Of a stretch of DNA of 64,000 nt, positions 2,555 through 21,161 are shown in pieces (the stretch's first letter is position 1; each line of letters begins with the position of its first letter). The notes beneath the pieces were generated by a model. The model worked only from the letters and a program-made list of their open reading frames with translations, searched no databases and was not told where the DNA came from. The translations under genes were made by a program, and so were the position numbers. Origin of the DNA: a virus (lineage: Duplodnaviria; Caudoviricetes); IMG/VR virus record IMGVR_UViG_3300028591_000075, positions 128,001 through 192,000 of that record. One strand, written 5' to 3'.

Positions 2555-2941
2555 ATGGATTTCAAAAAGACAATTTTTGAAGCATGTGTTGCGGTCCCTT
2601 CCATGGGTGACGCCATCGCTGCCGCATATGACTGCATTTTTGAGGCAGATGCTGGAACTGCCCAGACATCATCTACCCAGGTGCAGAATGGCGGTACCAG
2701 TCAAAACGATGTTGCCATCGACCCTGCTGCGATTACGGAAAATCCGGAAAGCGCCAAGATCCTGGCCGATATTGCAACTAAGGCATCCCAGCAGCAACAG
2801 CAGGTCGAGCAGGCCCAGAAGCAACTTGACCAGACCACCGAGGCTGCCAAGACGACGCTCATGGAACTGGACAAGGAACATGATGCCCAGGAAACTCTCA
2901 ACGAGCAAAACCAGAAGCAGATTCCTAATACCCAGGGGTAG
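2555..2941 (+). CDS. Acidic Q-rich protein, putative head-internal protein with cleavable leader
   Basis: Late promoter; leader KTIFEA...DCIFEA; coiled-coil C-terminus. Confidence 0.7.
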   Translation: MDFKKTIFEACVAVPSMGDAIAAAYDCIFEADAGTAQTSSTQVQNGGTSQNDVAIDPAAITENPESAKILADIATKASQQQQQVEQAQKQLDQTTEAAKTTLMELDKEHDAQETLNEQNQKQIPNTQG

Positions 2942-2944
2942 TCA

Positions 2945-3514
2945 ATGGTTCCGGCAATCAAGTATCTTGAATTCATGAAGGGCCTGTTTGAGGCTACCGG
3001 CGACCGTGGTGTGGTGGCCGCTGCCGAGACATTCCGCGCCCTCTGTGAAGGCAACTACTTCCGGCCACTGATGGTTCCGGATTCGATACGGCAGAATGCC
3101 GTCATCGACTGGAAGGGCTTTACCCATATTGTCCCGAGCGCTTCGAACACCTCCGGTACGTCGGCGCCCGATGTGCTTCCCGATGGCGGAAACACCATTA
3201 GCGGCCACTGTACAAGGGATATTGGTGCGGAAACCCGTGAGGCGAAGTGGGAAGTGCCTGACCTGATTTCCGGTGGACAGGTGACCGGCCTCGGAAAGTA
3301 CAAGACGGATGTTTTCCAGTCGGTACCCATTGAAGACATGATTAAGCGGGCACAGGCGAACCTTCCCAATCCGATGGAATGGGCTGTTTCCCTGAACCAC
3401 ATGCCGATGAAGTGCGGCTACTCGATAACATGCCCGAATAACCAGAACGGCGTGTATGCCGGCGACGGTGTCGGTGGTGGTTCTGATTCCGGCGGTGGTG
3501 GAGCGCCATCCTAG
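2945..3514 (+). CDS. Hypothetical protein, putative head-internal protein
   Basis: Leader KGLFEA...ALCEG; Gly-rich C-terminus. Confidence 0.7.
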   Translation: MVPAIKYLEFMKGLFEATGDRGVVAAAETFRALCEGNYFRPLMVPDSIRQNAVIDWKGFTHIVPSASNTSGTSAPDVLPDGGNTISGHCTRDIGAETREAKWEVPDLISGGQVTGLGKYKTDVFQSVPIEDMIKRAQANLPNPMEWAVSLNHMPMKCGYSITCPNNQNGVYAGDGVGGGSDSGGGGAPS

Positions 3515-3515
3515 T

Positions 3516-3710
3516 ATGACCAAGCAATTTCTACTACTTTTCATAGCAATCATGATATTCATGGTTGCTTTTGCGTACGAGGCCGGATCGTTGGCAGTCG
3601 CGTCCGATAATATACGCATAGAACACCATGTTGTAAAGGATGGGACCTGGGTGGACACCTCGGCCCCATATAAACTGCCAGAAAAGAAACATTTTTGGAC
3701 ATTGCCATGA
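3516..3710 (+). CDS. Small membrane-anchored protein (64 aa)
   Basis: ATG 1 nt after the upstream stop; hydrophobic N-terminus; its TGA overlaps the next ATG (ATGA). Confidence 0.5.
   Translation: MTKQFLLLFIAIMIFMVAFAYEAGSLAVASDNIRIEHHVVKDGTWVDTSAPYKLPEKKHFWTLP
3669..3676 (+). promoter_or_regulatory. Late promoter TATAAACT
   Basis: Exact motif 30 nt before ATG 3707. Confidence 0.7.
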
Positions 3711-5656
3711 ACGAAGAAATCTTTGATAGCATCTCGGACCTGCTTGCCAAGAGCGGCACGACCGTTTCCAAGAAACTGGATGGCTCGATTGTAGTGTCGC
3801 TGCCGGACAGTTCGGAAAAACTCGCCGATTGTACTGACAACGGCGATGGAACCGTTTCCTACACGATGTACCGCGGTGATGATACGGAGGAGGTCGGTAG
3901 CGGCACTCCGGAAGAGTTCAAGGAACATGTGCTTGATGCGCTTGATTCGTGGATTGACTATGTCCCGTATGACCAGTTCGCCGTAGAACCTAATGTTTCG
4001 GTGGAATACCGTCGCGCAATCGGCGAGAGTCGGGATGATGCCATGCGTCGCTCCCTCTTCGAGATGGGGTTGGATTACAACCAGGCCGAGGCGATAATAG
4101 GTGTCGCCAATGCTCTCATGGAATCCGGTGAATATGTATCGGTCAATGTTGATGGAAAGACCATGGAGGGGAGCTCGTTCGAAAACTTGGTTTCGAGAAA
4201 TGAGCCATACCTCACCCGCAAATGGTTGTTGAAGCAAATTAGGGAAAAGAATGTCGATGTTCAAGGCATGGATCTGAAGATGTCGGGAATATCGGCATTG
4301 ACGGAAAAGATTTGGCAGCATGACCATCCAGGCGAGGACTTGGGTGCCCTGTCGCCGGCAGAAAAGACGGCAGAGCTGAACAAGGTTAAGCCAACCAAGG
4401 CGCAGCTTAAAGAATATGTGGAACAATATCGTTCCGCTGCACAGACCCAGACATTCCAGACCGATGATGATGTCCTGGGCAACAATTTCGACAAAAGGAC
4501 AAAGGAAAAGGACACTTCGAAGGATACTGCTCTTCGTGCCGCGGTCTCGGGTAATGAAGATGCCATTCAAAGTGGAGAGGCCGATGACTACGATGATGAA
4601 ATCGAAGGCCATGGCGGTCATCTTGCTGCGAACTACACCGAGGATGGCCGAAAGATTTCCGGTTCAGATGAGGAAGCATCCGCCGAAATCGGTGCTTCGG
4701 TAAAGGAAATCAAAGACCAGGATTCAAATACCAAAACCGATGCACAGCAGCGCATCATAAAAATGCTCGGTGATAAGGGATACAAGTATCCTGAACTGGG
4801 CACACTCCCAATCAAGACCTTGGAGCAGTGCTTGTTTGCGATTAACAAACTTACCGCAAAGAAGAAGTTCAACCTAGATACTGATGCCGAATTGGAACCG
4901 GGCAAACTGCTTCATAAAGCCGGATATACCAAGGATAATGGTCCGAGCGATGAAGATGTTCGCGATGAAATGATGAAAACTTTGTGGGTTGGCGATGTAA
5001 ACTCGCTCAATAGCAAGGAACCGTATGAAATCCCGACTGACTTCATTGCAATGATTGAGGAGAATGCCGAGACACTTAAGAATTCGTTTGACGAATATCT
5101 GGCTATTATTCCGAGATTGCCTCGTGGAACGGCTACCCGGTATGTAATGGATCTCCTGTTTGGTGCTCCGGGAAATGGCGTTGGCGGAATCGTTGGCGGT
5201 ATCTTGAATGGTGACCAGACAATCATGGACAAGATTGCTAAAGGTGAAAGCCTCATTGATGGAAGCTCGATGACGCCGGCTCAGTACAACGGCATTTCGC
5301 AGGCACTGAAAAACGAAGTGCTCAGTAGCGCCATTAGAGCAGTACAGGATAATCTGGGAAATTACATCGACATCATTGTCAGCGGATTGCCCGGTGCATT
5401 CGATGAAGCATGCAACGATAATGTATCCGATTACACCTATGCGGCAATCGATCCGGAATTCGTTACTATGATTCGTTCCATCTTGTTTGGAAAGCAATGC
5501 CCGCTCGCCGGTTATCCATGGAATGCTATCGACACCCTTATCAATGATATTGGTAAGGTAATGACGGTAAGTGCACCATCCGGTGCGCAGCGTAAGATTA
5601 CTGGAACTGTGCCTGGCAAGACCATTAAACCTAAGAAACCAGAAGAACAGTCGTAA
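3707..5656 (+). CDS. Large acidic hypothetical protein, putative head-internal/ejected protein
   Basis: Long ORF, late promoter, internal RSLFEM...ALMES motif. Confidence 0.8.
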   Translation: MNEEIFDSISDLLAKSGTTVSKKLDGSIVVSLPDSSEKLADCTDNGDGTVSYTMYRGDDTEEVGSGTPEEFKEHVLDALDSWIDYVPYDQFAVEPNVSVEYRRAIGESRDDAMRRSLFEMGLDYNQAEAIIGVANALMESGEYVSVNVDGKTMEGSSFENLVSRNEPYLTRKWLLKQIREKNVDVQGMDLKMSGISALTEKIWQHDHPGEDLGALSPAEKTAELNKVKPTKAQLKEYVEQYRSAAQTQTFQTDDDVLGNNFDKRTKEKDTSKDTALRAAVSGNEDAIQSGEADDYDDEIEGHGGHLAANYTEDGRKISGSDEEASAEIGASVKEIKDQDSNTKTDAQQRIIKMLGDKGYKYPELGTLPIKTLEQCLFAINKLTAKKKFNLDTDAELEPGKLLHKAGYTKDNGPSDEDVRDEMMKTLWVGDVNSLNSKEPYEIPTDFIAMIEENAETLKNSFDEYLAIIPRLPRGTATRYVMDLLFGAPGNGVGGIVGGILNGDQTIMDKIAKGESLIDGSSMTPAQYNGISQALKNEVLSSAIRAVQDNLGNYIDIIVSGLPGAFDEACNDNVSDYTYAAIDPEFVTMIRSILFGKQCPLAGYPWNAIDTLINDIGKVMTVSAPSGAQRKITGTVPGKTIKPKKPEEQS

Positions 5657-5672
5657 ATTTACGTTTACATTT

Positions 5673-5708
5673 GAAAAAATGACGGTCATTTCGATGACCG
5701 TCTTTTTC
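5673..5708. terminator. Intrinsic terminator, probably bidirectional
   Basis: GAAAAAAT-GACGGTCAT-TTCG-ATGACCGTC-TTTTTC. Confidence 0.9.
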
Positions 5709-5739
5709 ATTGGCGGTCCATTTTTGCTACATTTACAAT

Positions 5740-6216
5740 ATGAAATCAAGATCGCCTTTCTTTTATCGCTACATGACGGTGCGTGGCATTCCGTACCAGT
5801 ACACCCAACCAAAGGATATATTCCTTGGCAAATACATTGCGCTTGATGGCACCGAGCGTGAACGCTGGATTCATACCCGACCCGATGATGACGCATTTTA
5901 CCGGCGCCGGAAAATCGTTGAACGGGTTCTACGGAGACATGAGGTTAGTAAGCATCAGCGCATGATTTCCCGGTTTGCTTTTGAATGCTGGTTCAGAGCA
6001 TTTGGGCCAACCAAGACAACCGGGTATCTATATGAGTATAGGCTTGCCGTGCTCAATCGGATGATGTACTTGGTGAAGAAGTATATGATACGGAAGAATA
6101 AGCCGGTTCCGCCTAGGTGTTACCGGGATTCGTGGGCACTTATGATGAACTTCATGAAAATGTCAATGACGTATGTGAATGAACACTTCAAGAGAACGGA
6201 GTTACCTGTTGTATGA
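5740..6216 (+). CDS. Basic hypothetical protein
   Basis: ATG 5 nt after a TACATTT element; stop overlaps the next start (ATGA). Confidence 0.7.
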   Translation: MKSRSPFFYRYMTVRGIPYQYTQPKDIFLGKYIALDGTERERWIHTRPDDDAFYRRRKIVERVLRRHEVSKHQRMISRFAFECWFRAFGPTKTTGYLYEYRLAVLNRMMYLVKKYMIRKNKPVPPRCYRDSWALMMNFMKMSMTYVNEHFKRTELPVV

Positions 6217-6647
6217 AAAGAAAGAAAACTGTAATAAAGGGTGTTGCGATGGTTTCAGACGAAGAAGCCTGGGCTCGCAATAAGCGCAGCTACAACCTCA
6301 TGGACATTCAGCGCGAAGCGGAAGTCGCCCAAAGCGCACAGGCAATGAATGCCGATGAATTAAAGTATCCGAGTGATTTCTATGCCGTTATGCGATTGAT
6401 GAAGCGTCATGGTGATGTCAAGCTAAGCAAGATACTGGCTACATTCAGTCCACTCGGTTTTATATGCCCGCAGTGTAACGGCACCGGCACGGTCAGGGAA
6501 AAGTATGCCACCGATATGCTTGCCGTTTCAACTGGATGCGCCGACTGGTCATACCGTGATGCCGAGTGCCCGCTGTGCAAGGGTACCGGGGCGGTATCTA
6601 AGAAGTTGAAGCCTAAGATGGTACAGGATGGTTGGGAAGAAGCCTAG
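6213..6647 (+). CDS. Protein with DnaJ-type zinc finger
   Basis: CPQCNGTG...CPLCKGTG. Confidence 0.8.
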   Translation: MKRKKTVIKGVAMVSDEEAWARNKRSYNLMDIQREAEVAQSAQAMNADELKYPSDFYAVMRLMKRHGDVKLSKILATFSPLGFICPQCNGTGTVREKYATDMLAVSTGCADWSYRDAECPLCKGTGAVSKKLKPKMVQDGWEEA

Positions 6648-7678
6648 ACATCCTCTATGTAGGTAATGCCACCGGACTTCACGATATCGTTGAAACGCTC
6701 CTTGTCCAGGATTCTGTATCGAATCTTTCGTGACGAGTTTACCGGTGAGCCGTCCCATGCGCTGAAGTAACTGTTGAGATGATACTTGGATATCGGTTCG
6801 CTTACGTTATTTCGCCTCATCATGTCCTCGATGCGGTTCGCCGCATCGTATTCAAGTCTTGGGACTACGAGTGAGTAACCGACACCGTTTCGCCATGGCC
6901 ATGCCAACAAGAGTGCGGTCTGTGGAGCTTCTGGCTTGGGGGGCTGGATTTCCCGCATAATGCCGGATTCAATCATTTCGTCCACGGTAGCATTCGGGAA
7001 TATCTTTCCATGGAGTGTTGACCTTCCTGTAACGAATTTTCCCTTGAAATTGGCATCACTGCATGCGTAGGCCACAATCGGCCTGTTCAGCCATTTGGTG
7101 GCTTTTGGAATTGCCCAACTAAGGTCCTTTTCGGCAACCCTGGATATGGCCGTCTCGCCCGGTTTATAGTCGCGGGCAGCAAGAAGGACTGTCCCGTCGT
7201 TTGCTATGCGGTTGGCCATGCCATTGTTGAGGGTAATCGGCGTATCGTTTACTACCGTGATGCGATAGTCGGATCTTGCGTTGATACGGTCACACCATTC
7301 CTGGAACCTTGGGCCATGGGTCTCCTTTACATCCCTGAGGTCGTCCGAGTAATCGAGATATGCATGTATCATTTCATGGATGAGAACTTCATCCAGCTTC
7401 TTCGGTGTGAAATCATATGCGTCCGAAAGCATGATTTCACATTTGAGTACCTCCGGTACCCCAAAGAAGATTTGAACTCGGCAGCTGCAGTGGCCCAGTG
7501 CCCTGACCCTTTTTGAGAACCCTATCGGTATCATGGCCGGCAGGTTTCCGGCATCTCCTTCAAAGAACTGGTTGCGAAATACCCTATACCGTTCTTCGAT
7601 ATACCCCTTCCCGTATTCGGAGGGGCGTTTGGCTATGCTTGTCTCAACATCCTCGAAAAGTGCGCACTGTACCATCAT
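6644..7678 (-). CDS. SprT-like zinc metalloprotease
   Basis: LIHEMIH zincin motif followed by HGPRFQ; start moved to 7678, just after a minus-strand TATAAACT. Confidence 0.85.
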   Translation of the reverse strand: MMVQCALFEDVETSIAKRPSEYGKGYIEERYRVFRNQFFEGDAGNLPAMIPIGFSKRVRALGHCSCRVQIFFGVPEVLKCEIMLSDAYDFTPKKLDEVLIHEMIHAYLDYSDDLRDVKETHGPRFQEWCDRINARSDYRITVVNDTPITLNNGMANRIANDGTVLLAARDYKPGETAISRVAEKDLSWAIPKATKWLNRPIVAYACSDANFKGKFVTGRSTLHGKIFPNATVDEMIESGIMREIQPPKPEAPQTALLLAWPWRNGVGYSLVVPRLEYDAANRIEDMMRRNNVSEPISKYHLNSYFSAWDGSPVNSSRKIRYRILDKERFNDIVKSGGITYIEDV

Positions 7679-7685
7679 GTAGAAT

Positions 7686-7693
7686 AGTTTATA
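7686..7693 (-). promoter_or_regulatory. Late promoter TATAAACT (SprT-like gene)
   Basis: AGTTTATA on the + strand, 7 nt from the ATG. Confidence 0.75.
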
Positions 7694-7748
7694 GTGGCAA
7701 AATGCACCCTCTGTGCAGTCAATACCTGCGCAAAAACTCATCAACGGC

Positions 7749-7756
7749 TATAAACT
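7749..7756 (+). promoter_or_regulatory. Late promoter TATAAACT (prohead core operon)
   Basis: Exact motif. Confidence 0.8.
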
Positions 7757-7780
7757 TACTGGAAAATCGTGGTAAATGGA

Positions 7781-7954
7781 ATGCAGAAAGCAGAAACACA
7801 GAGACTGGTGACGGCACTGTTCAACAACGACGACGCGGAAATCAACCGGATCGTCAGTGCCAGGCTCGAAAGCCAGTTCAAGCGCCGGGTCGAGGAGACC
7901 AGCAAGGCCGTGTTCGAAAGTATGCTGTCTGACCAGGAGCCTCAGTTTGGGTAA
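7781..7954 (+). CDS. Small prohead core protein, gp67-like
   Basis: LVTALFNND..E...VSARLE...VEE..KAVFES resembles the T4 gp67 pattern; lies upstream of the protease. Confidence 0.6.
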   Translation: MQKAETQRLVTALFNNDDAEINRIVSARLESQFKRRVEETSKAVFESMLSDQEPQFG

Positions 7955-7971
7955 TTCAGGGGAGTCGAAAA

Positions 7972-8712
7972 ATGGGTGCAATAACTAACAATATGGGCAT
8001 TTTCGAGACACCGGTGTTTGAGGGATCCACCTCTCATATCGGTGAACGTATCGGCCTTGATGGCAAGCCCGTCAAGCGCCTGATTATCGAAGGTACCGCC
8101 ATCGTCTGTGGAGTGGTCGGTATTAACGGGCGTGACTACCCCCGCGAAATCATCGCCAGGGAAGTCGAACGCCTGAACCGTGACTATGTTGCCTACGGTC
8201 GTCTCGCTGCGGAACTCAACCATCCGCGTCTGGACGAGGAAGGCAAGCCCCGCGACTACCCGATTTTTGAAATGAACTTGAAGAAGACCTGCGCCGTCAT
8301 TGAGGACCTTCACATGGAAGGTGACAAGCTCAAATGCCGCATGGTTGTTGCTGAGGATACTGATGCTGGACACGACTTGGCTGGCCTCATCAAGATTGGC
8401 TATCATCCTGGCTATTCTCTCCGTGGCGCAGGTGATACGGTCAAGAAGGTGAATGCGGTCACTCGCGAAGAATACGAGCAGATTGCCGACAACTACACGA
8501 TGATTACCGTTGATGTAGTTGGCAACCCGAGCTTCGGACAGAGCGCAATCTTCAATGCGAAGCGCGAATCTGTCGAAAAGCCGATTAAAGTCCTCACCGA
8601 ATCAATCAATTCGCTGCGCCGTGAAGTGGCATACAACAGGACCCTGATATCCACCGGGTATCGCAGCTATAACCGTGAATCGCTCATTGGGTACCTGAGC
8701 CAGATGAGATAG
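7972..8712 (+). CDS. gp21: Prohead core protease (gp21-like)
   Basis: NGRDYP, ELNHP (catalytic His), GYSLRGAG (catalytic Ser), DVVGNPS. Confidence 0.92.
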   Translation: MGAITNNMGIFETPVFEGSTSHIGERIGLDGKPVKRLIIEGTAIVCGVVGINGRDYPREIIAREVERLNRDYVAYGRLAAELNHPRLDEEGKPRDYPIFEMNLKKTCAVIEDLHMEGDKLKCRMVVAEDTDAGHDLAGLIKIGYHPGYSLRGAGDTVKKVNAVTREEYEQIADNYTMITVDVVGNPSFGQSAIFNAKRESVEKPIKVLTESINSLRREVAYNRTLISTGYRSYNRESLIGYLSQMR

Positions 8713-8719
8713 GGATAAT

Positions 8720-9607
8720 ATGGTGCTGGAAAAGATATTGACAGAAGCTGAGATTGGCTCATTGCCAGAAGGTATTGCAGCCAAAATCGAGTCGGACTAC
8801 CAGTCGAGGTTGGAGGCCGGTGTCAAGGCAGAATCTAAAAAGACTGCCGAGAAGTTCTCCAAATTACTTGAATCCGTTAACAACAAAGTTGAAGATAAAA
8901 TCAACGCCGCAGTAGAGTCGTGCATGGCAAACATGCAGACCGATGCTATCAATACCAAGATGTATGCGGCTTTGAAAGGCGTTGCCGCTATTCTTGAAAA
9001 CTCTCTTGGTGTTGACGGATTTGGTGATACACAGACTGTTAAGGACTTGAAGCGTGAATTGGCCAAGGTCAATCTTGAATTGAAAGAGAATTACATCAAG
9101 CATGAGGAACTTACTGACCGTCTCAATAAGGCCAATGCTGAAAAGAAAGTTCTCAATCTTTGCCAGGGTCTTGACCCCAATACGGTCAACAATGTCCTCG
9201 ACCATTTCCGTGGTCATGATGAACGTGAAATCACCAAGGAAACTGTCACTGCATTCATCAACTCTCATCTCATCGATGACCAGAATGGTTTTGTCCTCGA
9301 TGTCGATCCTGATCCGAACGATATCAACATGGACAAGATCCGCAATGCCATCAAGGATGCCGACGATTTCCAGTTGGACTTCAATGGTAACGATGACCCT
9401 GTCCAGCAGAAGCAGACAGCCGCACAGCGCAACTTTGTCGAATCTGTTGGCCGTGGCCTGAAACCGCAGAAAATCGGGCTCCAGGGCACGACTGTCACTC
9501 TCGAATCCATTCGTGAGGAGAATGCCGAACCGGCTGATGACGTTGGACTTGCCATGAAGCAGATGGCTGCCTACGACGAACTGGGCATCGGTGGCCGTTT
9601 CGGGTAG
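8720..9607 (+). CDS. Prohead scaffold/core protein (gp22-like)
   Basis: Acidic coiled-coil protein directly after gp21, with many L/I-x-E sites. Confidence 0.7.
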   Translation: MVLEKILTEAEIGSLPEGIAAKIESDYQSRLEAGVKAESKKTAEKFSKLLESVNNKVEDKINAAVESCMANMQTDAINTKMYAALKGVAAILENSLGVDGFGDTQTVKDLKRELAKVNLELKENYIKHEELTDRLNKANAEKKVLNLCQGLDPNTVNNVLDHFRGHDEREITKETVTAFINSHLIDDQNGFVLDVDPDPNDINMDKIRNAIKDADDFQLDFNGNDDPVQQKQTAAQRNFVESVGRGLKPQKIGLQGTTVTLESIREENAEPADDVGLAMKQMAAYDELGIGGRFG

Positions 9608-9634
9608 TCAACAGTGTCATAAATTGACAAACAT

Positions 9635-9664
9635 AGGCGGCATTCGTGCCGCCTTTCTTGTTTT
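9635..9664 (+). terminator. Intrinsic terminator
   Basis: AGGCGGCA-TTCG-TGCCGCCT-TTCTTGTTTT. Confidence 0.88.
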
Positions 9665-9715
9665 GTAACAAAGAGATAGTTTTACCCTGGATACGGTACC
9701 GTCCTCGGTGACGGC

Positions 9716-9723
9716 TATAAACT
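9716..9723 (+). promoter_or_regulatory. Late promoter TATAAACT
   Basis: ACGGCTATAAACT, same 13-mer as at 7744-7756. Confidence 0.8.
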
Positions 9724-9738
9724 GTAGAAGAGGTATTT

Positions 9739-10311
9739 ATGCGTTCTCAGAGAGATTACAACCAGCCGCAGCAACAACCCGGTCTCGTTATTCCGGGAAT
9801 GGGTCCCGGTTCCATGCCACCGGCACAGCCAGGTTTCCCTCCCCAGCAAATGACGATGCCCGGTGGAAATTATGCGCCAAATCCTTACCCATACAACCAG
9901 ATGGGTGCTGAATTTGGTGGCCCTGGGTATGTGCAGGGGAACTTCCCTCAACAGCAACAGCAGCCGAACCAGGGTGGGTGGGTTTCTCCGGGCTACCGAG
10001 ATCCTAATTCCATTTCTGATGTGATGGACGCTGCTCAGGCCGATGCGGCCGTGGACAAGTATGATGCCCTCATCAACCAGTTGAACGGTATCGACCCTGA
10101 ACTTTCCGAAGTCCGGGCCGGCGGTGCTGTCGTCACGAAGAGTGTCGATGCCACTTACCATGAAATGCTTCGTGTCATCAAGCTTCTGGAATTCCCGGAA
10201 GAATGGATTCCCCCTACACGTGCAAAGTACGTCGAGACCGTTCGTGCCGGTGGTAAGCCAATTGTTGACAAGTTGAAGAACTATGCAGCCCAGATTGCCA
10301 AACTGAGGTAA
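9739..10311 (+). CDS. Hypothetical protein with Q/P/G-rich disordered N-terminus and helical C-terminal domain
   Basis: Composition; GAGG SD. Confidence 0.8.
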   Translation: MRSQRDYNQPQQQPGLVIPGMGPGSMPPAQPGFPPQQMTMPGGNYAPNPYPYNQMGAEFGGPGYVQGNFPQQQQQPNQGGWVSPGYRDPNSISDVMDAAQADAAVDKYDALINQLNGIDPELSEVRAGGAVVTKSVDATYHEMLRVIKLLEFPEEWIPPTRAKYVETVRAGGKPIVDKLKNYAAQIAKLR

Positions 10312-10316
10312 ACTTA

Positions 10317-12722: not shown

Positions 12723-12737
12723 GGAATAGTTTTCCCT

Positions 12738-13484: not shown

Positions 13485-13487
13485 ACT
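13480..13487 (+). promoter_or_regulatory. Late promoter TATAAACT overlapping the gp55 stop codon
   Basis: Exact motif. Confidence 0.7.
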
Positions 13488-13521
13488 TACGACGTAAAGA
13501 TTTAGCTTCGTAGGTGTCCAA

Positions 13522-14001
13522 ATGGGAATCAGAGTAAACAACGGTGATGCAGTAGGGATGATTGGTAACAATTTCGATACCCATCCGGACTATCGTCATG
13601 ACCTCTTCTTGCAGGTCCAGCAGCTGGCGCGTGGTGTCGGTGACGTTACTAGCGGGAAGGCCGACGAGTTCCTTGAACGTGCCTACGAGCAGAACTGGTG
13701 GCACACCGAGGACAAGCTGGCCGAGGTGCAGGACAAGTTCCAGGAAGATGACATGATCAACAATACTCCGGGGCGCGGTTCCAAGAACTATCGCCGCATG
13801 GAGTACGACATCATCAAGAACCCCAATGGCAAGGGTGCCGAACCTGACCGCAAGGCCGCCGAGGAAAAGGGCCTCCTCACCAAGGAGGAACTGCTTGAAC
13901 GTCTCAAATCCAAGAAGTGGACGCTCTGCACGACCGCAAGTGCCGTCAGCAGCACCCCGATTACCCAGAAGGATTACGACGGCCAAATTAAGCTCCGCTA
14001 A
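13522..14001 (+). CDS. Hypothetical protein
   Basis: ORF with strong codon bias, AGGT SD. Confidence 0.8.
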   Translation: MGIRVNNGDAVGMIGNNFDTHPDYRHDLFLQVQQLARGVGDVTSGKADEFLERAYEQNWWHTEDKLAEVQDKFQEDDMINNTPGRGSKNYRRMEYDIIKNPNGKGAEPDRKAAEEKGLLTKEELLERLKSKKWTLCTTASAVSSTPITQKDYDGQIKLR

Positions 14002-14024
14002 GTTTCAACTTGAAACAATTCATG

Positions 14025-14061
14025 AAAAAGTGTCGATTTTATTCAAAAATCGGCACTTTTT
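14025..14061. repeat. 16-bp inverted repeat (terminator or activator site)
   Basis: AAAAAGTGTCGATTTT-ATTCA-AAAATCGGCACTTTTT, one mismatch. Confidence 0.8.
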
Positions 14062-14066
14062 ATAAT

Positions 14067-14082
14067 TGGCACGCATTTTGCA
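14067..14082 (+). promoter_or_regulatory. Sigma-54 (-24/-12) promoter of hsp20
   Basis: TGGCACG-CATT-TTGCA with exact GG-N10-GC spacing. Confidence 0.8.
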
Positions 14083-14126
14083 ATAGGAACAATGAAAAAA
14101 CAAAAGGATTAACAAAGGAGTTAATA

Positions 14127-14513
14127 ATGTCCAAAGAATTAAGTATTTTCCCGTTTGGTTCTTTCTTCGGTAGGGGCTTCGGTGACTGGATGAACGAAAT
14201 CGCTGACAATGGTGCCGTTGGCAACATCGCCTGCTACAAGTCCGAGACCGAGACCGGGACCACGTTCATGTTTGATGTGCCGGGTGTCCAGAAGGATGCC
14301 ATTGACATCGGGTTCGATGACAACGGTCGCATCTTGACCGTAAGCGCCGTGCGTAAGTTCGACGATACCGAGGTGAAGATGAAGGCTCGCGTTGCGGTTC
14401 CCGAAAAGGCCGACTCGACCGGCGATGTCAAGTGCGCGTTGAAGGATGGTGTGTTGACCGTTACGGTCCCGTTGAAGAAGGAATCCCAGCCCCGCAAGCT
14501 GATGATTGAATAA
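14127..14513 (+). CDS. hsp20: Small heat shock protein (Hsp20/alpha-crystallin)
   Basis: DVPGVQKDAIDI, LTVSA and ALKDGVLTVTVP motifs, C-terminal I-x-I-like LMIE; AAGGAG SD. Confidence 0.93.
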   Translation: MSKELSIFPFGSFFGRGFGDWMNEIADNGAVGNIACYKSETETGTTFMFDVPGVQKDAIDIGFDDNGRILTVSAVRKFDDTEVKMKARVAVPEKADSTGDVKCALKDGVLTVTVPLKKESQPRKLMIE

Positions 14514-14532
14514 TCTTCTGGCGAACAATTAT

Positions 14533-14562
14533 GGCCGTCCATCCGGGCGGCCTTTTTTATTT
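14533..14562. terminator. Intrinsic terminator between convergent genes
   Basis: GGCCGTCC-ATCC-GGGCGGCC-TTTTTT. Confidence 0.85.
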
Positions 14563-14564
14563 AC

Positions 14565-14945
14565 TTAGGAATTTGCGTACTTTTCGAGCTTTTGTTTCAG
14601 TCTTGCTTTCAGAGGCGCCTTATCGACCTGTTCAATGGCCTCGCGGAGTGCCTGAACGAAGTCCTTCTTGGGGGTATTCCCGCGTGCTTCTTCGATGACT
14701 TGCATCGGGGTCTTTTCCTTTTCTTCCTGTTTCGGGGCTTCCTGGGTTTCCTGCTTCGGTTCTTCTTTCTTCTCGTCTTCCAGGCCGTACTTGCAGTGGC
14801 CGTTGCAGTCGGGATCGCCGCAGGGGCAGTCGCCGGTTGCTTCGATAATCACCGTCTTCATGCCGGTGATGACACTTTCCAGTACGACACGGTCCTTGAT
14901 CGATGCCTTTGCTTCCTTAAAATACCTATCAAGTTCTTCTTTCAT
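14565..14945 (-). CDS. Charged hypothetical protein, putative head-internal protein
   Basis: Leader YFKEA...VLESV...IIEA, then CPCGDPDCNGHC; GAGG SD; TATAAGTCT variant upstream. Confidence 0.7.
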   Translation of the reverse strand: MKEELDRYFKEAKASIKDRVVLESVITGMKTVIIEATGDCPCGDPDCNGHCKYGLEDEKKEEPKQETQEAPKQEEKEKTPMQVIEEARGNTPKKDFVQALREAIEQVDKAPLKARLKQKLEKYANS

Positions 14946-15008
14946 CGGGGATACCTCGCCATAGACTTATAGGTTCGACCCGCTAAAACATATAAATCTA
15001 TCGCTGAA

Positions 15009-16634
15009 ATGACGCCGTTCTACTATGTAAGAGAAATCGAGAAGCTGCTTGTCGCCATCTACGACATGTTCGACAACCTGCGCGTGAACAAGTACACTGA
15101 CATGAACCGCACCGAATATGCGGATACGGTCAGGGTCAAGCTCGTGACGCACTATTCGGATGACTTCGCCAACTGGTTGAGCTCCACAATGAGCAAGCAG
15201 CAGCTGCAGGTCCTGCCGGTCGCGGGACTGCGTTTCGTCAGTACATCGAAAGATGACAGCAACCTGGTCCAGCCGACATACGCGAGGGAAATCTATTCCA
15301 GGCGCAACGACTTCTGGATTAGGGACATCCAGCCGAAACCTACCGTGTTCAGGTTCGAACTCACGGTCCTCTCCAACAATTTCTCCGACTTCGCGCAGTT
15401 GAAGGAAAACATTGAACCTTACTTCAACGATTACAGAACGGTCCGCCTGAAAGAATTTGACTTTGCGCCCGAGATTGAACAGCCGGTTCCAATCTTCCTG
15501 GCCGGAGTGAACGACAGTCTTGAAGACGAAACAGACAATACCGGTTCAAAGTTCCAGCAGTACAAGACTACCTACCAGCTTGAAGCCCACGGCCTGATGC
15601 ACAAGCCGTACGCGCTTCCTGCGGAAATCCGCTATGCCGAGATGAACTTCATCGTGAACAAGCAGTACAACGATGTCGAGCAGATCCTGGTGTACCCGGA
15701 CGAGATTGCCAAGCAGAAACGCCGCGCATGGGAAACCGTGGAGCCGTCCATCAGGGAAGGATATTCCCTGTTGAAGACATTTGCCAAGACCCTCGTCCGG
15801 CGCGGCGAGGTTGATGGCGAGGAATACTGGGCAGACGAGACCATCAGGTACGCCATGCTCACATACAACGAGATTAGCGGAGTTGATACTAGCGGCAACA
15901 ACATCGGTACCAACCCAATCTTGAAGGGCTACCAGAGGGACGAGAATGGCGAATACGTCCTCGATGCTGATGGTGACCGCATTCCGATTTACGACTGGGA
16001 ACAGGTCATTGTCGATGACATCGAACGTCCTGCGGAGGTGCCGTCTTTCGACCTTATCCATCTCACGTTTGATGAAGACAGCCCGGTTGCGACTGACATG
16101 AGCGGTCTAGGCCGAGACTTCGTTGCAGTGAATGACGATACACGCAAGTTCATTCCGGGACTTCCTCCGGGAAACGGAACGAATACCGATGGCGGTTATG
16201 TATATGACACACCGACCGGTGACGATTCCAGGCTTTATTGGTCCCAGATTCTGAACTGGTTCGGCGATAACAAGGAAGGCACAATCGAGAGCCCGTACAC
16301 CTTCAAGGCTACATTGCAGTTCCATGAAAGTGTTCCGGGTGATACGCTGTTCCAGTATCTGTACAACCCGAACGAGGTGACCCTTGAAGACGGTACGGTG
16401 ATACCCGCTGAAAGCGTATGGTTCGACTGGGGCGTGATGGACAGCAAACTGTATTTCACCTATCACACCACGACCCAGAGTCGGACGTTCGAGACGGAGA
16501 CATTTGAGTTCGACAACCAGATGATTTATTCATTCTACTTCGTGCTGTATGACCATGGCAAGAAGGGTATATTCGGCGTGAAGACCAACCTCAACGATAC
16601 CATGGTGGCGTTGAAGACCGTGGAGGTTGACTAA
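15009..16634 (+). CDS. gp15: Tail terminator/sheath stabiliser (gp15-like) with C-terminal extension
   Basis: FYYVREIEKLL.....MFDNLRV, LPVAG and ENIEPYF match the gp15 pattern; TATAAATC at 14991. Confidence 0.8.
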   Translation: MTPFYYVREIEKLLVAIYDMFDNLRVNKYTDMNRTEYADTVRVKLVTHYSDDFANWLSSTMSKQQLQVLPVAGLRFVSTSKDDSNLVQPTYAREIYSRRNDFWIRDIQPKPTVFRFELTVLSNNFSDFAQLKENIEPYFNDYRTVRLKEFDFAPEIEQPVPIFLAGVNDSLEDETDNTGSKFQQYKTTYQLEAHGLMHKPYALPAEIRYAEMNFIVNKQYNDVEQILVYPDEIAKQKRRAWETVEPSIREGYSLLKTFAKTLVRRGEVDGEEYWADETIRYAMLTYNEISGVDTSGNNIGTNPILKGYQRDENGEYVLDADGDRIPIYDWEQVIVDDIERPAEVPSFDLIHLTFDEDSPVATDMSGLGRDFVAVNDDTRKFIPGLPPGNGTNTDGGYVYDTPTGDDSRLYWSQILNWFGDNKEGTIESPYTFKATLQFHESVPGDTLFQYLYNPNEVTLEDGTVIPAESVWFDWGVMDSKLYFTYHTTTQSRTFETETFEFDNQMIYSFYFVLYDHGKKGIFGVKTNLNDTMVALKTVEVD

Positions 16635-17302
16635 TGACGGTCGCCGAGATAATCGAGATGCAGCGCAAGAAGTGCGAGGCCGATAAGCAGGCCAAGCTGC
16701 AGAAGCGTGCTGCACCAAAGCCGGCACCTGTTCCACCAAAGCCGGCAAAGCCGAAACCGAGTGATGTGGAACGTGCCTATATTGAGGACCGCACATATGA
16801 TGGCAAGGTTCCGGAAGGTGGCATGCGTGGCATCATGCGTAAGGAAAACCCGGAAGAGTATGTGGGTCGAGATGGTACCAAGACCTTCGTACCGTGGCGC
16901 TATGTCTCGATGCAGGACCTTGAACTTCCCGATAACGGCAATCCGTACCGTAAGCCTGAACAGGATACTAATACGAAGAAGCCCCTTGACCCGTGGGGGC
17001 GCCCGTCCGGGTATGTAGGTTCGGCAGCCGGTCCAAACATGTCCCCTGAATATGACCCGTGGTCTGTATCCGGAACCGTCCCGTCGTCACAGGGTGGCCA
17101 GGCCGGTGGGTGGGATGATTGGCTTGCGCCGGCTCCCATGCAGCAACCGATGCCACAGAATGCGGCGCCGGCACAGTCCGGTGGATGGGATTCCTGGATG
17201 TCTCCCGCTCCCGCCCCGGAAGCAGCTCCGGAACAAATTGAACAACAACCGGTCGCCGACACCAATGGAACCTTGGACATAATGCGCTCCATGCGACCGT
17301 AA
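16634..17302 (+). CDS. Pro-rich disordered hypothetical protein
   Basis: Start coupled to the gp15 stop (TAATG); DPW x2 and GGWDxW x2. Confidence 0.75.
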   Translation: MTVAEIIEMQRKKCEADKQAKLQKRAAPKPAPVPPKPAKPKPSDVERAYIEDRTYDGKVPEGGMRGIMRKENPEEYVGRDGTKTFVPWRYVSMQDLELPDNGNPYRKPEQDTNTKKPLDPWGRPSGYVGSAAGPNMSPEYDPWSVSGTVPSSQGGQAGGWDDWLAPAPMQQPMPQNAAPAQSGGWDSWMSPAPAPEAAPEQIEQQPVADTNGTLDIMRSMRP

Positions 17303-17337
17303 GGAACTAATTTTATAACAAAAAGGAAGATACCATA

Positions 17338-17955
17338 ATGGGAATGAGCATTCAAGACATTCTTAAGGCACAGCAGCGGGCTGCTAGTGCAACTCGTAAG
17401 TTTAAGCCGGCACCATACAGAAAGCCTGAACCCAATGCCGGTAATCGTACAGTGCAAGACTTGCTGAAGGCCCAGCAGACGGCTGCAAGTGCTACCCGTA
17501 AGACTCCCGTTGCTACTGCCGCGAAGCCTGAACCCAATAGCAACGTGGCCGAACTTATCGAACGTCAGCGCGTTATCGCTGCCGCACAGAAGGCTGCCAC
17601 TTCCGGGATAAGCCCTGTTCTCTCGTCCAACCAGAAGGCCGTCGTCGATGCCGTCCGTGAACAGTACAAGAAGTTCCTGACCAAGTTGGACAAGGAACTT
17701 GCTGAACAGGAATTGCGCATGACACCTCCCCCGGCACCTGCACCTGAGCCGGAACCGATCTTCACTCCCAATGTTCCCGGTAACATGGAAGTGGTCATCG
17801 AACCCCAGGTGGCCCCGTCCGACGTGAACGGAATTTCCGTTGGCGAAGAAATGGGTGGCCAGGTGGCAGTATCGACCCGTCCGAAGCGCCGGCGCAGGGT
17901 CAAGATTGCAAAGCAAGACACTACGGCGGTTGAAGAACCGGCGGTTGAAGCCTAA
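17338..17955 (+). CDS. Ala/Pro/Lys-rich hypothetical protein with 34-aa tandem repeats
   Basis: QDxLKAQQxAASATRK...KPEPN repeated with a 102-nt period. Confidence 0.8.
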   Translation: MGMSIQDILKAQQRAASATRKFKPAPYRKPEPNAGNRTVQDLLKAQQTAASATRKTPVATAAKPEPNSNVAELIERQRVIAAAQKAATSGISPVLSSNQKAVVDAVREQYKKFLTKLDKELAEQELRMTPPPAPAPEPEPIFTPNVPGNMEVVIEPQVAPSDVNGISVGEEMGGQVAVSTRPKRRRRVKIAKQDTTAVEEPAVEA

Positions 17956-17956
17956 A

Positions 17957-18040
17957 ATGCCTACTATAATTTTTGTTGTCGTGGTCATTGTTGCCGGAGC
18001 GCTATTCTTCAATCATAATGATTGGGGTAGCTTCCGGTAG
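17957..18040 (+). CDS. 27-aa single-TM microprotein
   Basis: MPTIIFVVVVIVAGALFF...; ATG 1 nt after the upstream stop; fills the gap to the next promoter. Confidence 0.4.
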   Translation: MPTIIFVVVVIVAGALFFNHNDWGSFR

Positions 18041-18048
18041 GCATCCGA

Positions 18049-18056
18049 TATAAACT
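18049..18056 (+). promoter_or_regulatory. Late promoter TATAAACT
   Basis: Exact motif. Confidence 0.8.
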
Positions 18057-18080
18057 GCCGATGTATAAAAGAGGTTCGCT

Positions 18081-18563
18081 ATGAATTCCGTTAGTAAAAA
18101 AATCCTTACCGAAGCAGCCACCAAGATTACGGGCGATCCACTGGTTGCAAAGCGTGTCGCCCTCATGGTTGCTCGTATGGAAGCTGCGGATGGAAAGGGT
18201 GAATCCTTCTCTACCGTGAAAGAGCTCTCCAACTGGCTGCTCGATGAATCGAACGGTCTCAACAAGATGCACTGGGGAGTGGACAAGATGAACAAGCACA
18301 CTCTCCTCGAAGAAGCATACGACCTTTGCCGCGACACCGGCGACAAGTTGGCGGAAACCTATGTTTCCCTTACCGGAAAGCCGGCTGCCGATGTGAAAGT
18401 CGATGACGAGACCGTCATTGCCAAGCTCAAAGAACTTCAGTCCCACATGAACGATGCCGTGGCCAAGAACAGTAAGTTCCCGGAAGGGCTGAAGAACATT
18501 TTTGCCGATTTTGATGAGAAAATTACCGGCATTCTTTACAAGTACCAGCAGTTTAACGGATAA
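18081..18563 (+). CDS. Dps/ferritin-like protein (DUF5856-type) with N-terminal leader
   Basis: MHW......H.LLEEAYD...D..DKLAE and LKNI.ADF......ILYK pattern of phage Dps-like proteins. Confidence 0.75.
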   Translation: MNSVSKKILTEAATKITGDPLVAKRVALMVARMEAADGKGESFSTVKELSNWLLDESNGLNKMHWGVDKMNKHTLLEEAYDLCRDTGDKLAETYVSLTGKPAADVKVDDETVIAKLKELQSHMNDAVAKNSKFPEGLKNIFADFDEKITGILYKYQQFNG

Positions 18564-18614
18564 TTTGTAGCCGGTACATCCATTTTCGTATTATATTTCC
18601 TCAGAGGTACCTCG

Positions 18615-19196
18615 ATGAAGATGACCGACATCATGGCTGCTCAGAAGGAAGAAATGCTCCGGCACAAGTGGATTGAGTCGGAAAAGGCCGGCCATGACCT
18701 CGGCGATTCCGTTATGGTCCAGTGGACCAAGGAACATGGCGCCGGGTGGCGATACAATTTCAATCTCGAACATCTGATGGAACTTCCCGAAGGCGACCAC
18801 GCCGTCTACTTCGGCATTTTCCTTGATGAGAAGTCAAAGAAAATTCTCATCGACACGATGTCCAAGTTCGTCCCATCCGGCTGGGATTTCAAGTGCGACA
18901 GATGCACACTGGCATTCGGTAACCCGGACGACCACCCTGATGTGAAGGAATATATCGCGGCAAACCTGGGCAACAAGGTGAAAATGAAAGTCGATTCAAT
19001 CGGCGTAGCAGTCGAGGTATTTGCCGTAGGTGTTACCGGTGACTTCAAGTCCACCATTGAACGACCGCACATCCCAGTTGCCGTGCCGCCCGGCGGCCAT
19101 TCAAAGAATTCAAACTTTATCAAGACGTGGAAGGACTATGCGCCAAAATTTGAACTCACTGGCACAGTCGATACCTTCCCCCGAATGTTTACATGA
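18615..19196 (+). CDS. DUF4032-like helical domain fused to a degenerate 2H phosphoesterase (tRNA-ligase CPDase-like)
   Basis: EMLRHKWIESEKAGHDLG...W...H...WR; YFGIFLD...PSGW...DRCTLAFG...PHIPVAV.PGG..KNSN. Confidence 0.65.
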   Translation: MKMTDIMAAQKEEMLRHKWIESEKAGHDLGDSVMVQWTKEHGAGWRYNFNLEHLMELPEGDHAVYFGIFLDEKSKKILIDTMSKFVPSGWDFKCDRCTLAFGNPDDHPDVKEYIAANLGNKVKMKVDSIGVAVEVFAVGVTGDFKSTIERPHIPVAVPPGGHSKNSNFIKTWKDYAPKFELTGTVDTFPRMFT

Positions 19197-19582
19197 CAAG
19201 AGAAATCGTAACAGAAAAATTCGCCGAGAATTTCGACACTGAGTACGTCTCGCGTGATTTCCCCCTAATATCGGCCATGTGTGCCAAGAATGACTACACT
19301 GGCTGCTACATCCTGAAATTGGTCACCGGTGAAGGCGTTGTCGCGATGGGCATCGTCGATCCGGACGGCTATCCGTTGAATACGAAGCTATGCGCGTTCG
19401 AGGTCAGGCACGATTGCCGTCACAAGGGATACGGCAAGGAACTCCTACAATACATTCTAATCAACTATGATGATGTGCGTGCCGTAGTATTGAGAGAAGC
19501 ACTCGGGTTTTACCGCAAGTGCTTCTTCAAGGTAATCGATGATAACGGCGGACAGGTGGTCACGGTCGAGGCTATTGCCTAG
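19193..19582 (+). CDS. GNAT-family acetyltransferase
   Basis: FEV...RHKGYGKELL and A.GFYRKCFF motifs. Confidence 0.85.
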   Translation: MTREIVTEKFAENFDTEYVSRDFPLISAMCAKNDYTGCYILKLVTGEGVVAMGIVDPDGYPLNTKLCAFEVRHDCRHKGYGKELLQYILINYDDVRAVVLREALGFYRKCFFKVIDDNGGQVVTVEAIA

Positions 19583-20045
19583 TCTTTCCGATAGGGTACT
19601 TCTGGGCCATTTCCCTGGTAGTCAGGTACATCAGTTTCTCGAACTCGTTCATGTTGTTGAACTTGATGATTTCCTTTTCCAACAGCGGATTGAATTTCCT
19701 GATATGCTGCCATTGCTGCTCGTCGCGCATGGCCTTTGCTGGATTTCCCTGCGCGATGATTGGCTGGACGAAGCATCCGGTCGGGTGCTTGGGACGGGCC
19801 TCGGTCTCGACCGTGGCGTCATTGTAGGAAGGATCGATGCACAGCGCGGGATCGCGGTCGAACGCGATGTCGGCAAGCTGCATGATGAATTCGGCAAACT
19901 CGTACCCGACAAGGTTCCCGAGGGACCTCATGGCGACTTCGGTATCGTCACCGGCAACCTCGAATATGCGGATGATTGTATCCGTCAGGTCCGGGTTGTT
20001 CGTTGTTTTGAATACGCTGACGCGCAGTAGCTCGATTGGTTCCAT
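19572..20045 (-). CDS. Hypothetical protein
   Basis: Start moved to MEPIELL, 7 nt after a minus-strand TATAAACT. Confidence 0.7.
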   Translation of the reverse strand: MEPIELLRVSVFKTTNNPDLTDTIIRIFEVAGDDTEVAMRSLGNLVGYEFAEFIMQLADIAFDRDPALCIDPSYNDATVETEARPKHPTGCFVQPIIAQGNPAKAMRDEQQWQHIRKFNPLLEKEIIKFNNMNEFEKLMYLTTREMAQKYPIGKTRQ

Positions 20046-20052
20046 ACCTGGA

Positions 20053-20064
20053 AGTTTATAAACT
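20053..20064. promoter_or_regulatory. Palindromic bidirectional late promoter AGTTTATAAACT
   Basis: Reads TATAAACT on both strands between divergent ATGs at 20045 and 20071. Confidence 0.8.
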
Positions 20065-20070
20065 GCTGGC

Positions 20071-20832
20071 ATGGACGCCAAGTATATCACACGCGATGAC
20101 ATGGTCCGCCGTATCATTTCCAGGATGGGTGGCCAGTGTCAGGAAATTGAAATGGTCGTGGAGGAAGACCGCGGTCTCGGTCATGTCCACATGGCTATCG
20201 AGGACACCGAGGACTTCTTCTACCGTTATTGTGTGGACGAGGCCCAGTATATCGACCTCATGGTCCTGCATCTTCTACCGGGTGTCATGGAATACCGTGT
20301 ACCGGACAACGTGGTCAACGTTATCGAGGTAAACCCCAGCTACGGCAATACCTTCTCCCCGATGATGGCCTGGGACGTGGGTCCGGGTGAATCCCTGATG
20401 GGTGTCGGCGGTGCCGGTCTTGGCGGCCTGGGCCAGTTCGACCTCATAACCTACTCCGGTGCGTTGCGCTACTTGCAGGATGTCAAGAAGCTGGTCGGTA
20501 CCCAGTATCACATCAAGTTCCACCCGACGGACCACCTCCTGAGGATCTACCCGACCCCGAGGTCCAGGACGAATGCTGTTGCCGAGGTGTACTTGAAGGC
20601 CAAGAAATCCGAGCTCTACAACAACATCCTCTTCCGTGACATGGCCTTTTGGCGTGCCCAGGAACAGCTCGGTATCATCTTGAAGAAGCATACCTTTACG
20701 ATGCCCGGTGGCCTGACCATCAACGGTAAGGAAATCTTTGACACGGCTGCCGCCCGTCTCGAAAAGCTGGAAGCAAGGGTTATCAGCGAAGCGCCGGGCG
20801 CATTCATGATGACGGATTTGTCCGGAATATAA
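20071..20832 (+). CDS. gp13: Neck protein (gp13-like)
   Basis: I.SRMG....EIE N-terminus; G.IL.KH...MPGG.TING..IFD.A C-terminal signature. Confidence 0.9.
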   Translation: MDAKYITRDDMVRRIISRMGGQCQEIEMVVEEDRGLGHVHMAIEDTEDFFYRYCVDEAQYIDLMVLHLLPGVMEYRVPDNVVNVIEVNPSYGNTFSPMMAWDVGPGESLMGVGGAGLGGLGQFDLITYSGALRYLQDVKKLVGTQYHIKFHPTDHLLRIYPTPRSRTNAVAEVYLKAKKSELYNNILFRDMAFWRAQEQLGIILKKHTFTMPGGLTINGKEIFDTAAARLEKLEARVISEAPGAFMMTDLSGI

Positions 20833-20835
20833 GCT
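20828..20835 (+). promoter_or_regulatory. Late promoter TATAAGCT overlapping the gp13 stop
   Basis: Motif match. Confidence 0.7.
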
Positions 20836-20861
20836 GTAGTAAAACATTATGGAGTTTAACG

Positions 20862-21161
20862 ATGGAATTCAAAGATCGTATGGTTAAGTTTGACGACTTC
20901 CTCACCAAGTTTGCAAAGGCTAGTGGCGCTTCGGAATTGTGTGAATCTGTTCGCGAGGCGGCAAAGGTGTGTTTTGAAGGTCTTGACACCAATCCGCCTT
21001 GGGCTGATCCGGGTCTTATTGATCCGAAGTACAAGAACAACTTGGTCGCAAGTTCCAATGAAATCCATCGCAAGGTCTTCCATGACATTCCGCTGGCCAG
21101 GTACAAAGCCCGCTTGAAAGCTAAGAAAGCTAATGATGCCTGTGCCGAAACCGTACAGTAA
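20862..21161 (+). CDS. Small putative head-internal protein
   Basis: Leader FDDFL...LCESV..A.KVCFEG; GGAG SD. Confidence 0.7.
   Translation: MEFKDRMVKFDDFLTKFAKASGASELCESVREAAKVCFEGLDTNPPWADPGLIDPKYKNNLVASSNEIHRKVFHDIPLARYKARLKAKKANDACAETVQ

Follow-up and report, generated by a model that had tools for sequence, protein, structure and literature searches.

A 64,000-nucleotide stretch of viral DNA (the window; bases 128001–192000 of the 253,312-bp viral contig IMGVR_UViG_3300028591_000075, whose completeness CheckV estimates at 67%) belongs to an uncultured, giant T4-like phage and encodes a set of late proteins that begin with similar two-part leaders on unrelated mature parts. We propose that these leaders are probably cleaved capsid-targeting propeptides, a longer and two-part counterpart of the capsid-targeting sequence (CTS) of the T4 internal proteins. 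A preliminary description of this DNA had listed a series of Glu-containing motifs near protein N-termini, and all of these are present in the genes to which they were assigned, including an internal module in gene 3707 and those of the gp67-like, protease and scaffold proteins. Its view that a two-helix leader ending in hydrophobic-x-Glu is carried by unrelated genes with late promoters is borne out by AlphaFold predictions, BLAST comparisons and promoter enrichment. The proteins of the window that carry leaders or leader-like modules are as follows, with genes named by window coordinate and a hyphen marking the predicted cut.

2555..2941 (+), 128-residue acidic protein; leader residues 1-30 (nucleotides 2555-2644), sites IFE-A (E9) and IFE-A (E30).
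2945..3514 (+), 189-residue protein; leader residues 1-35 (nucleotides 2945-3049), sites LFE-A (E16) and LCE-G (E35).
3707..5656 (+), 649-residue protein; internal leader-like module at residues 116-139 (nucleotides 4052-4123), ending LME-S.
14565..14945 (-), 126-residue Cys-rich charged protein; leader residues 1-35 (nucleotides 14841-14945), sites at E11, E23 and E35 (IIE-A).
18081..18563 (+), 160-residue Dps-like (ferritin-like) protein; leader residues 1-34 (nucleotides 18081-18182), sites LTE-A (E11) and RME-A (E34).
20862..21161 (+), 99-residue basic protein; leader residues 1-39 (nucleotides 20862-20978), sites LCE-S (E28) and CFE-G (E39).
-730 to 697 (+) (genome coordinates 127270-128697), 475-residue protein; N-terminal leader and two internal leader-like modules.

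The whole contig yields 239 called genes, using a codon-usage log-odds model together with scoring of ribosome-binding sites. When the motif [ILVFMC]-x-E-[AGS] is scored in the first 45 residues of each protein, 16 of the 239 have at least two sites, compared with 2.9 predicted from internal 45-residue windows of the same proteins (binomial p=6e-8). The enrichment over shuffled N-termini anticipated in the preliminary description is also seen, with 3.6 ± 1.9 proteins (maximum 12) in 1000 shuffles. The spacing of the sites is similarly distinctive: of 28 first sites lying within 20 residues of the start, 11 have a second site 17–25 residues further on, whereas 12 of 311 internal sites do (p=3e-9), an approximately 10-fold enrichment.

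Thirty related loci are present in a viral contig collection, including two complete genomes (419 and 422 kb) with terminal repeats, and both tests were repeated, with the motif fixed beforehand, on the complete 422-kb relative, whose protease is 58% identical to that of the window. Here 18 of 562 proteins have at least two N-terminal sites (7.7 expected), and the spacing test gives 14 of 59 N-terminal against 21 of 483 internal cases (p=2e-7). Because the N-terminal enrichment and the spacing replicate in this second genome, the site pattern is real, genome-wide and clade-wide. A crude count over all open reading frames in the related loci gave no enrichment, spurious frames having swamped the signal; a recount with coding-potential gene calls does show enrichment, although it is inflated by orthologue redundancy and wrongly takes in a close relative, and we rely instead on the whole-genome replication.

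At least 17 contig proteins carry leaders, as do about 20 genes across the 422-kb relative, where the leader typically starts with a few residues followed by a basic residue, a hydrophobic residue, Phe, any residue, Glu and Ala or Ser; a G-L-S/T-P-x-x-Q region joins the helices, and the second site, 23 or 24 residues on from the first, reads Cys-Phe/Leu-Glu and then Ala, Gly or Ser. The final sites always have Glu followed by Ala, Gly or Ser, with two hydrophobic residues before it (only the adjacent one in the Dps-like family), and the position three before the cut is mostly Ile, Leu, Phe or Val. Cys is common near these sites, lying within four residues before the final Glu in 7 of 17 contig leaders but in 22 of 303 other contig sites (41% and 7%), and in 9 of 13 and 58 of 509, respectively, in the 422-kb relative (69% and 11%). 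Window examples of such final sites lie at 3040-3049 and 20967-20978; the T4 sites have no such Cys.

The leader behaves as a module. BLAST finds the mature parts of the 17 carriers to be unrelated, save that the Dps-like protein is weakly similar to one other, and three contig genes outside the window have leaders that clearly match (two are 89% identical) joined to mature parts without detectable similarity. Each of four large relatives has one to three copies of the leader of this three-gene subfamily, in frames of 117–338 residues. A profile built from 21 leaders was searched against 1.84 billion representative proteins (cut-off E<=0.001) and matches 113 protein clusters with lengths of 50–778 residues; the leader begins within the first ten residues in 96 of 111 database matches, and 89 mature parts of at least 50 residues fall into 53 groups without BLAST links. 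Among 61 representatives of the commonest subfamily, column entropy averages 1.0 bit over the leader and is 0.8 bit for the residue that follows the final Glu, rising to 3.7 bits for the positions beyond; on these values the common module stops exactly at the predicted cut.

Structure predictions place the sites consistently. AlphaFold, run on an alignment of the 21 leaders, gives two helices (residues 3-17 and 20-37; mean predicted local distance difference test score 89.5), and for the full 18081 protein it places helices at 3-17 and 20-35 ahead of a disordered segment (36-45) and four more helices. In these models helix 2 terminates at the final site, and the first site falls midway along helix 1.

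Orthologue comparisons show that the sites are the fixed parts of the leaders: in the proteins encoded by 2555, 2945, 14565(-), 18081 and 3707, and in the 475-residue protein, every Glu site is kept and the flanking residues vary within the allowed classes. Both Glu sites of the 2555 protein are kept in four orthologues (to 43% identity) that differ in flanking residues and have an insertion or deletion directly after the final site. Orthologues of the 2945 protein keep its sites, with LCE-G changed to LCE-S; four orthologues of the 14565(-) protein keep three of three sites; and the final Glu of the 3707 internal module is kept in four orthologues. The 20862 leader is degenerate at the first-site position (FLTK), and its database relatives P0102 and P0108 retain the leader and the final site.

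As suggested in the preliminary description, the 18081 protein is Dps-like, matching PDB 2CHP (E=5e-5, from residue 47), phrog_858 and DUF5856; Foldseek matches to its model are weak (E 0.05, template-modelling score ~0.3), though every top match is a Dps, and the Dps-like identity is thus supported by the sequence matches. Among 18 homologues (45–84% identity) E34, A35 and D37 are invariant, G40 nearly so, and the early mature residues are largely kept, while the leader diverges and in some homologues carries a 15–17-residue insert that adds a Cys-Glu-Ser/Ala site. A fixed Glu34/Ala35 and a kept mature start next to a freely varying leader are, in this alignment, the expected appearance of a propeptide with a fixed scissile bond.

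A candidate for the enzyme is encoded nearby, together with head proteins that have sites of the same kind.

7769..7954 (+), 61-residue prohead-core protein at the T4 gp67/gp68 position; two sites, RLE-S and VFE-S.
7972..8712 (+), prohead protease of the T4 gp21 type (Peptidase S77); PF03420 E=1.8e-14, phrog_207 E=4e-33.
8720..9607 (+), scaffold protein at the T4 gp22 position; several sites.

The 7972 protease aligns to the T4 gp21 structure 5JBL, and the His of ELNHP and the Ser of GYSLRG, which we take from T4 gp21 to be its catalytic residues, are invariant in 18 clade members; it is the predicted enzyme of leader removal. The protease has site-like motifs near both its ends, of which the C-terminal LTE-S and x-E-S are conserved in the clade and the N-terminal one occurs in some members only; T4 gp21 is thought to be trimmed at its own ends (PMC9026906). 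The 7769 core protein has no family match in PHROG and Pfam scans and is assigned by its position and processing pattern; both of its sites are present in 14 of 14 aligned clade members, to ~27% identity. The 8720 scaffold, also without a Pfam or PHROG family match and identified by position and composition, has sites at residues 24 (KIE-S) and 241 (FVE-S) that are kept in 18 of 19 clade scaffolds, and the leaders probably dock on it. A gp23-type major capsid protein, encoded ~107 kb upstream of the window, has sites at E18, E30 and E51 ahead of a Pfam Gp23 domain that starts at residue 59. Capsid, scaffold, core and protease proteins thus bear leader-type sites in their sequences, and the specificity of the clade protease, as read off these conserved putative substrates, agrees with the leader sites.

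The leader genes are also linked to the head genes by their promoters. The octamer TATAAACT, which resembles the T4 late promoter TATAAATA, is present in 39 copies in the contig, about 36 of them within 80 nucleotides upstream of a gene in the correct orientation, and it lies upstream of head, tail, fibre and leader genes; from these positions it behaves as the late promoter of the phage. A copy stands ahead of 9 of the 17 leader genes, compared with 31 of the other 222 genes (p=4e-4); of the leader genes left, most lie downstream of a different late gene or carry a version of TATAAACT with one base changed. The copies in the window are as follows.

1748, 2530, 3669, 7749, 9716, 13480, 18049 and 20057 (+), TATAAACT.
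7686-7693 and 20053-20060 (-), TATAAACT.

Three of these stand ahead of leader genes, at 2530-2537 (gene 2555), 3669-3676 (3707) and 18049-18056 (18081); gene 2945 is co-transcribed with 2555, and the variant TATAAGCT lies upstream of 20862. We also note that genes 19572-20045(-) and 20071-20832(+) diverge from a stretch at 20053-20064 where their promoter copies overlap as the palindrome AGTTTATAAACT, apparently a late promoter working in both directions. For these two genes, and for 6644(-) and 57851(+), the motif begins only 14–17 nucleotides before the start codon, leaving room for almost no untranslated leader or ribosome-binding site.

The mechanism that we envisage begins with late genes read from TATAAACT promoters to give precursors whose first 22–39 residues would form a helical hairpin. 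Helix 1 would present an aromatic/Phe-hydrophobic-Glu-(Ala/Ser) segment resembling the 10-residue T4 CTS, and helix 2 would end in small-hydrophobic-hydrophobic-Glu followed by Ala, Gly or Ser, often with Cys near the Glu. The hairpin would dock on the scaffold core so that the precursor is built into the prohead, and the gp21-type protease would then cut after the Glu residues, breaking the leader into small peptides, which exit, and releasing the mature protein within the capsid. The mature protein would probably enter the host with the DNA, which is the weakest step of the scheme and is taken from T4. Cleavage, packaging and injection of the carriers are thus steps that we infer by analogy, and the preliminary description's proposal of a capsid-targeting propeptide stands as to the modular leaders, the T4-type sites and the intact gp21-type protease, with its functional steps drawn only from T4.

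The precedent is well established. T4 gp21 cleaves after L/I-x-Glu, and the T4 internal proteins carry a 10–19-residue N-terminal CTS that binds the scaffold core and is removed by gp21; the CTS can bring foreign proteins into the head, and a review already proposes that it lets T4-like phages load varied proteins (PMC9026906, PMC3012670). The suggestion in the preliminary description that the leader could serve as a portable packaging tag is therefore not new in kind, such tagging being established for the T4 CTS. As in T4 (IPI, IPII, IPIII and Alt), an N-terminal leader is found on unrelated, fast-evolving late proteins and ends in hydrophobic-x-Glu followed by a small residue, and a gp21-family protease occurs alongside capsid, scaffold and core proteins that have such sites too. 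The T4 leaders in NC_000866 have one site in IPI (E19), one in IPIII and two in IPII (E10 and E19), and the two sites in the first 19 residues of IPII are like the two-site leaders described here. The differences are that the leader here is 22–39 rather than 10–19 residues long, is predicted to form a two-helix hairpin with a preferred distance of 23–24 residues between sites, and has a near-invariant Phe in its first segment and frequently a Cys beside the final Glu. There are also many more carriers per genome than in T4 (at least 17 here and ~20 in the relative), with mostly acidic cargo and with internal and C-terminal copies.

The giant phages phiKZ, 201phi2-1 and SPN3US likewise have many internal head proteins (gp175 and gp245 are the proteases), with N-terminal propeptides cut after Glu, often at several sites (PMC10052503, PMC9026906), and in phiKZ and SPN3US these several cuts follow a small-x-Glu motif (PMC10052503). 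In that group Ala, Ser or Gly stands three before the cut, the propeptides span 20–254 residues and there is no common leader sequence, whereas here the Glu follows two hydrophobic positions, in the manner of T4, and the leader recurs as a module. Neither the small residue three before the cut nor a phiKZ-type capsid protein is found in this phage, its capsid protein being of the gp23 type.

Encapsulin cargo-loading peptides provide a further parallel, being short and transferable and steering cargo proteins of unrelated kinds, ferritin-like ones among them, into a shell with the HK97 fold; the presence of a leader on a Dps-like (ferritin-like) protein adds to the likeness. Those peptides are usually C-terminal, bind the shell and are not removed, and neither a protease nor a scaffold is involved. 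The literature searched does not describe a leader of this greater length and two-helix form, and because CTS precedents are known we regard the system as a variant of the T4 type that extends the long-known principle of T4, phiKZ and SPN3US and is not a new kind of system.

A number of observations weigh against the interpretation of the leaders as cleaved capsid-targeting propeptides. Between the leader and the T4 CTS there is no significant homology in sequence; the two resemble each other in an aromatic residue, Phe, a hydrophobic residue, Glu and Ala only, a segment too short for a significance test. Since the first site lies within a predicted helix, it may be a docking element rather than a cut site. 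Most mature parts are acidic (pI, the isoelectric point, of 4–5), unlike the basic T4 internal proteins. Internal or C-terminal copies of the leader exist, so that an N-terminal address is not the whole story. The gene calls are home-made, and the phage is known here from its sequence alone. The leaders are also difficult to unite as one family: a right-anchored profile built from 17 leaders and tested leave-one-out did not recover left-out members significantly, among them the five window leaders (2555, 2945, 14565(-), 18081 and 20862), and a profile made only from leaders of the 422-kb relative also missed these five, recovering one contig subfamily and one other contig protein.

As the profiles fail to link them, we dropped the view that the five window leaders are one homologous domain; they have an architecture in common, with homology not demonstrable. 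The shared leader family of the preliminary description therefore holds as a common architecture, and with at least 17 carriers it is broader than was noted, while the five window leaders are not provably homologous. The 21 leaders drawn from four genomes do align nearly gap-free, with a Phe two before the first Glu and the final Glu itself both near-invariant, and their profile (A3) finds members on which it was not trained: residues 116-140 of the 3707 protein (E=0.003 in a proteome search), an internal module in another contig protein (E=2.5e-5) and eight additional proteins of the 422-kb relative, mostly at residue 1.

Other explanations account less well for these data. The leaders could be cleaved propeptides that keep cargo inactive or aid its folding until the head is sealed, with targeting residing elsewhere, or the proteins could be disposable components of the core or scaffold. 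Having several sites in a leader, and site-rich proteins such as 14565(-), does recall scaffold-type degradation, and the propeptides of SPN3US and phiKZ are multiply cut and of unknown roles (PMC10052503, PMC9026906); we nonetheless think this unlikely, as a leader that recurs on mature parts of at least 53 unrelated groups, homology stopping at the cut, suits a generic address more than it does an inhibitor or chaperone specific to one cargo, and conserved, folded mature domains such as the Dps-like one also count against it. Another view is that an uncleaved hairpin recruits proteins to a common partner unconnected with head assembly (a chaperone, say, or a target in the host), with the Glu-small motifs being no more than part of the helix pattern. 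The inter-helix G-L-S/T-P-x-x-Q region of the relative resembles that of a generic helix-turn-helix hairpin, and the internal and C-terminal copies would suit such a role, yet the invariant features are those of a T4-type cleavage site that is common to capsid, scaffold, core and protease proteins, conservation ends at the residue after the Glu, the final site stands at a helix end followed by a disordered linker, and the genes are expressed late alongside head genes, all of which make an uncleaved hairpin distinctly improbable. That the pattern arises by chance, through composition, or from a paralogous family mistaken for unrelated genes is barely credible: the motif is short and the three genes outside the window are indeed leader paralogues, but the shuffle, internal-window and spacing controls reject chance, the result is replicated in a second genome, and mature parts are dissimilar even where leaders are 89% identical.

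The internal and C-terminal copies have features of their own. The 475-residue protein has its internal modules at about residues 170-216 and 272-296, and over its last 200 residues it shares 47% identity with the mature portion of a 213-residue leader-bearing protein of the 422-kb relative, in an alignment that begins within the leader of the latter; it looks like a polyprotein in which cargo units are split by cut-delimited modules. The 3707 protein is predicted to have either a long propeptide or two fragments. In database proteins P0060, P0062 and P0101 (349–411 residues) a complete leader lies at the extreme C-terminus and stops four residues past the final Glu, which could reflect either a C-terminal tag or a run-on of the gene call.

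One further gene had been included among the cargo in the preliminary description.

6644..7678 (-), SprT-like metalloprotease-family protein; PF10263 E=1.5e-11, with a short LFE-D near its start.

The membership of this protein is doubtful because its sole leader-like feature is a short LFE with Asp as the next residue, or Arg in its homologue in the 422-kb relative (which starts MKSLFE-R), and the leader profile matches neither protein; its place as leader-bearing cargo is accordingly not sustained. A longer reading frame for 6644(-) is ruled out by the promoter at 7686-7693(-). In the 422-kb relative (G001, L053-L074, ~112–120 kb) at least six leader-bearing genes are grouped around the SprT-like gene.

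Almost no annotation comes from comparing 27 proteins, either leader-bearing or encoded nearby, with PHROG and Pfam; the 2945 protein, for example, has no match in either. Two other frames of the window are of some interest.

2198-2473 (+), 91-codon frame whose end has a Pro run, four Cys and a Trp/Pro-rich tail; low coding potential.
15009-16634 (+), similar to tail sheath stabilisers over its first 230 residues (phrog_227, E=6e-15); ~2x the family length.

The head region and capsid gene, used as DNA queries, find no matches in a phage collection, and the closest protease matches there are T4-like phages at ~30% identity; by these comparisons the phage has no cultured close relative.

We raise tentatively, and with rather less confidence than we place in the propeptide interpretation, the wider possibility that a clade of phages with genomes of 250–420 kb has turned the T4 trick into a general address-label system that is mobile by recombination. 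A two-helix, cut-delimited module might be placed at the start, middle or end of almost any protein and load dozens of unrelated cargos, sometimes as polyproteins, into the capsid for delivery to the host, with the conserved Cys next to the final Glu serving as a specific determinant of recognition or docking that T4 lacks. If the propeptide interpretation is right, the CTS concept would grow from a 10-residue peptide to a structured, cut-delimited module reused on more than 50 cargo families, with a bearing on the evolution of phage payload diversity and on the design of capsid-loading tags. The internal head proteins are the first phage products to encounter host defences, and the leader would provide a sequence-only marker for those internal, probably injected, head proteins in this group of uncultured giant phages, with ~17–25 candidates per genome, nearly all of them without known function.

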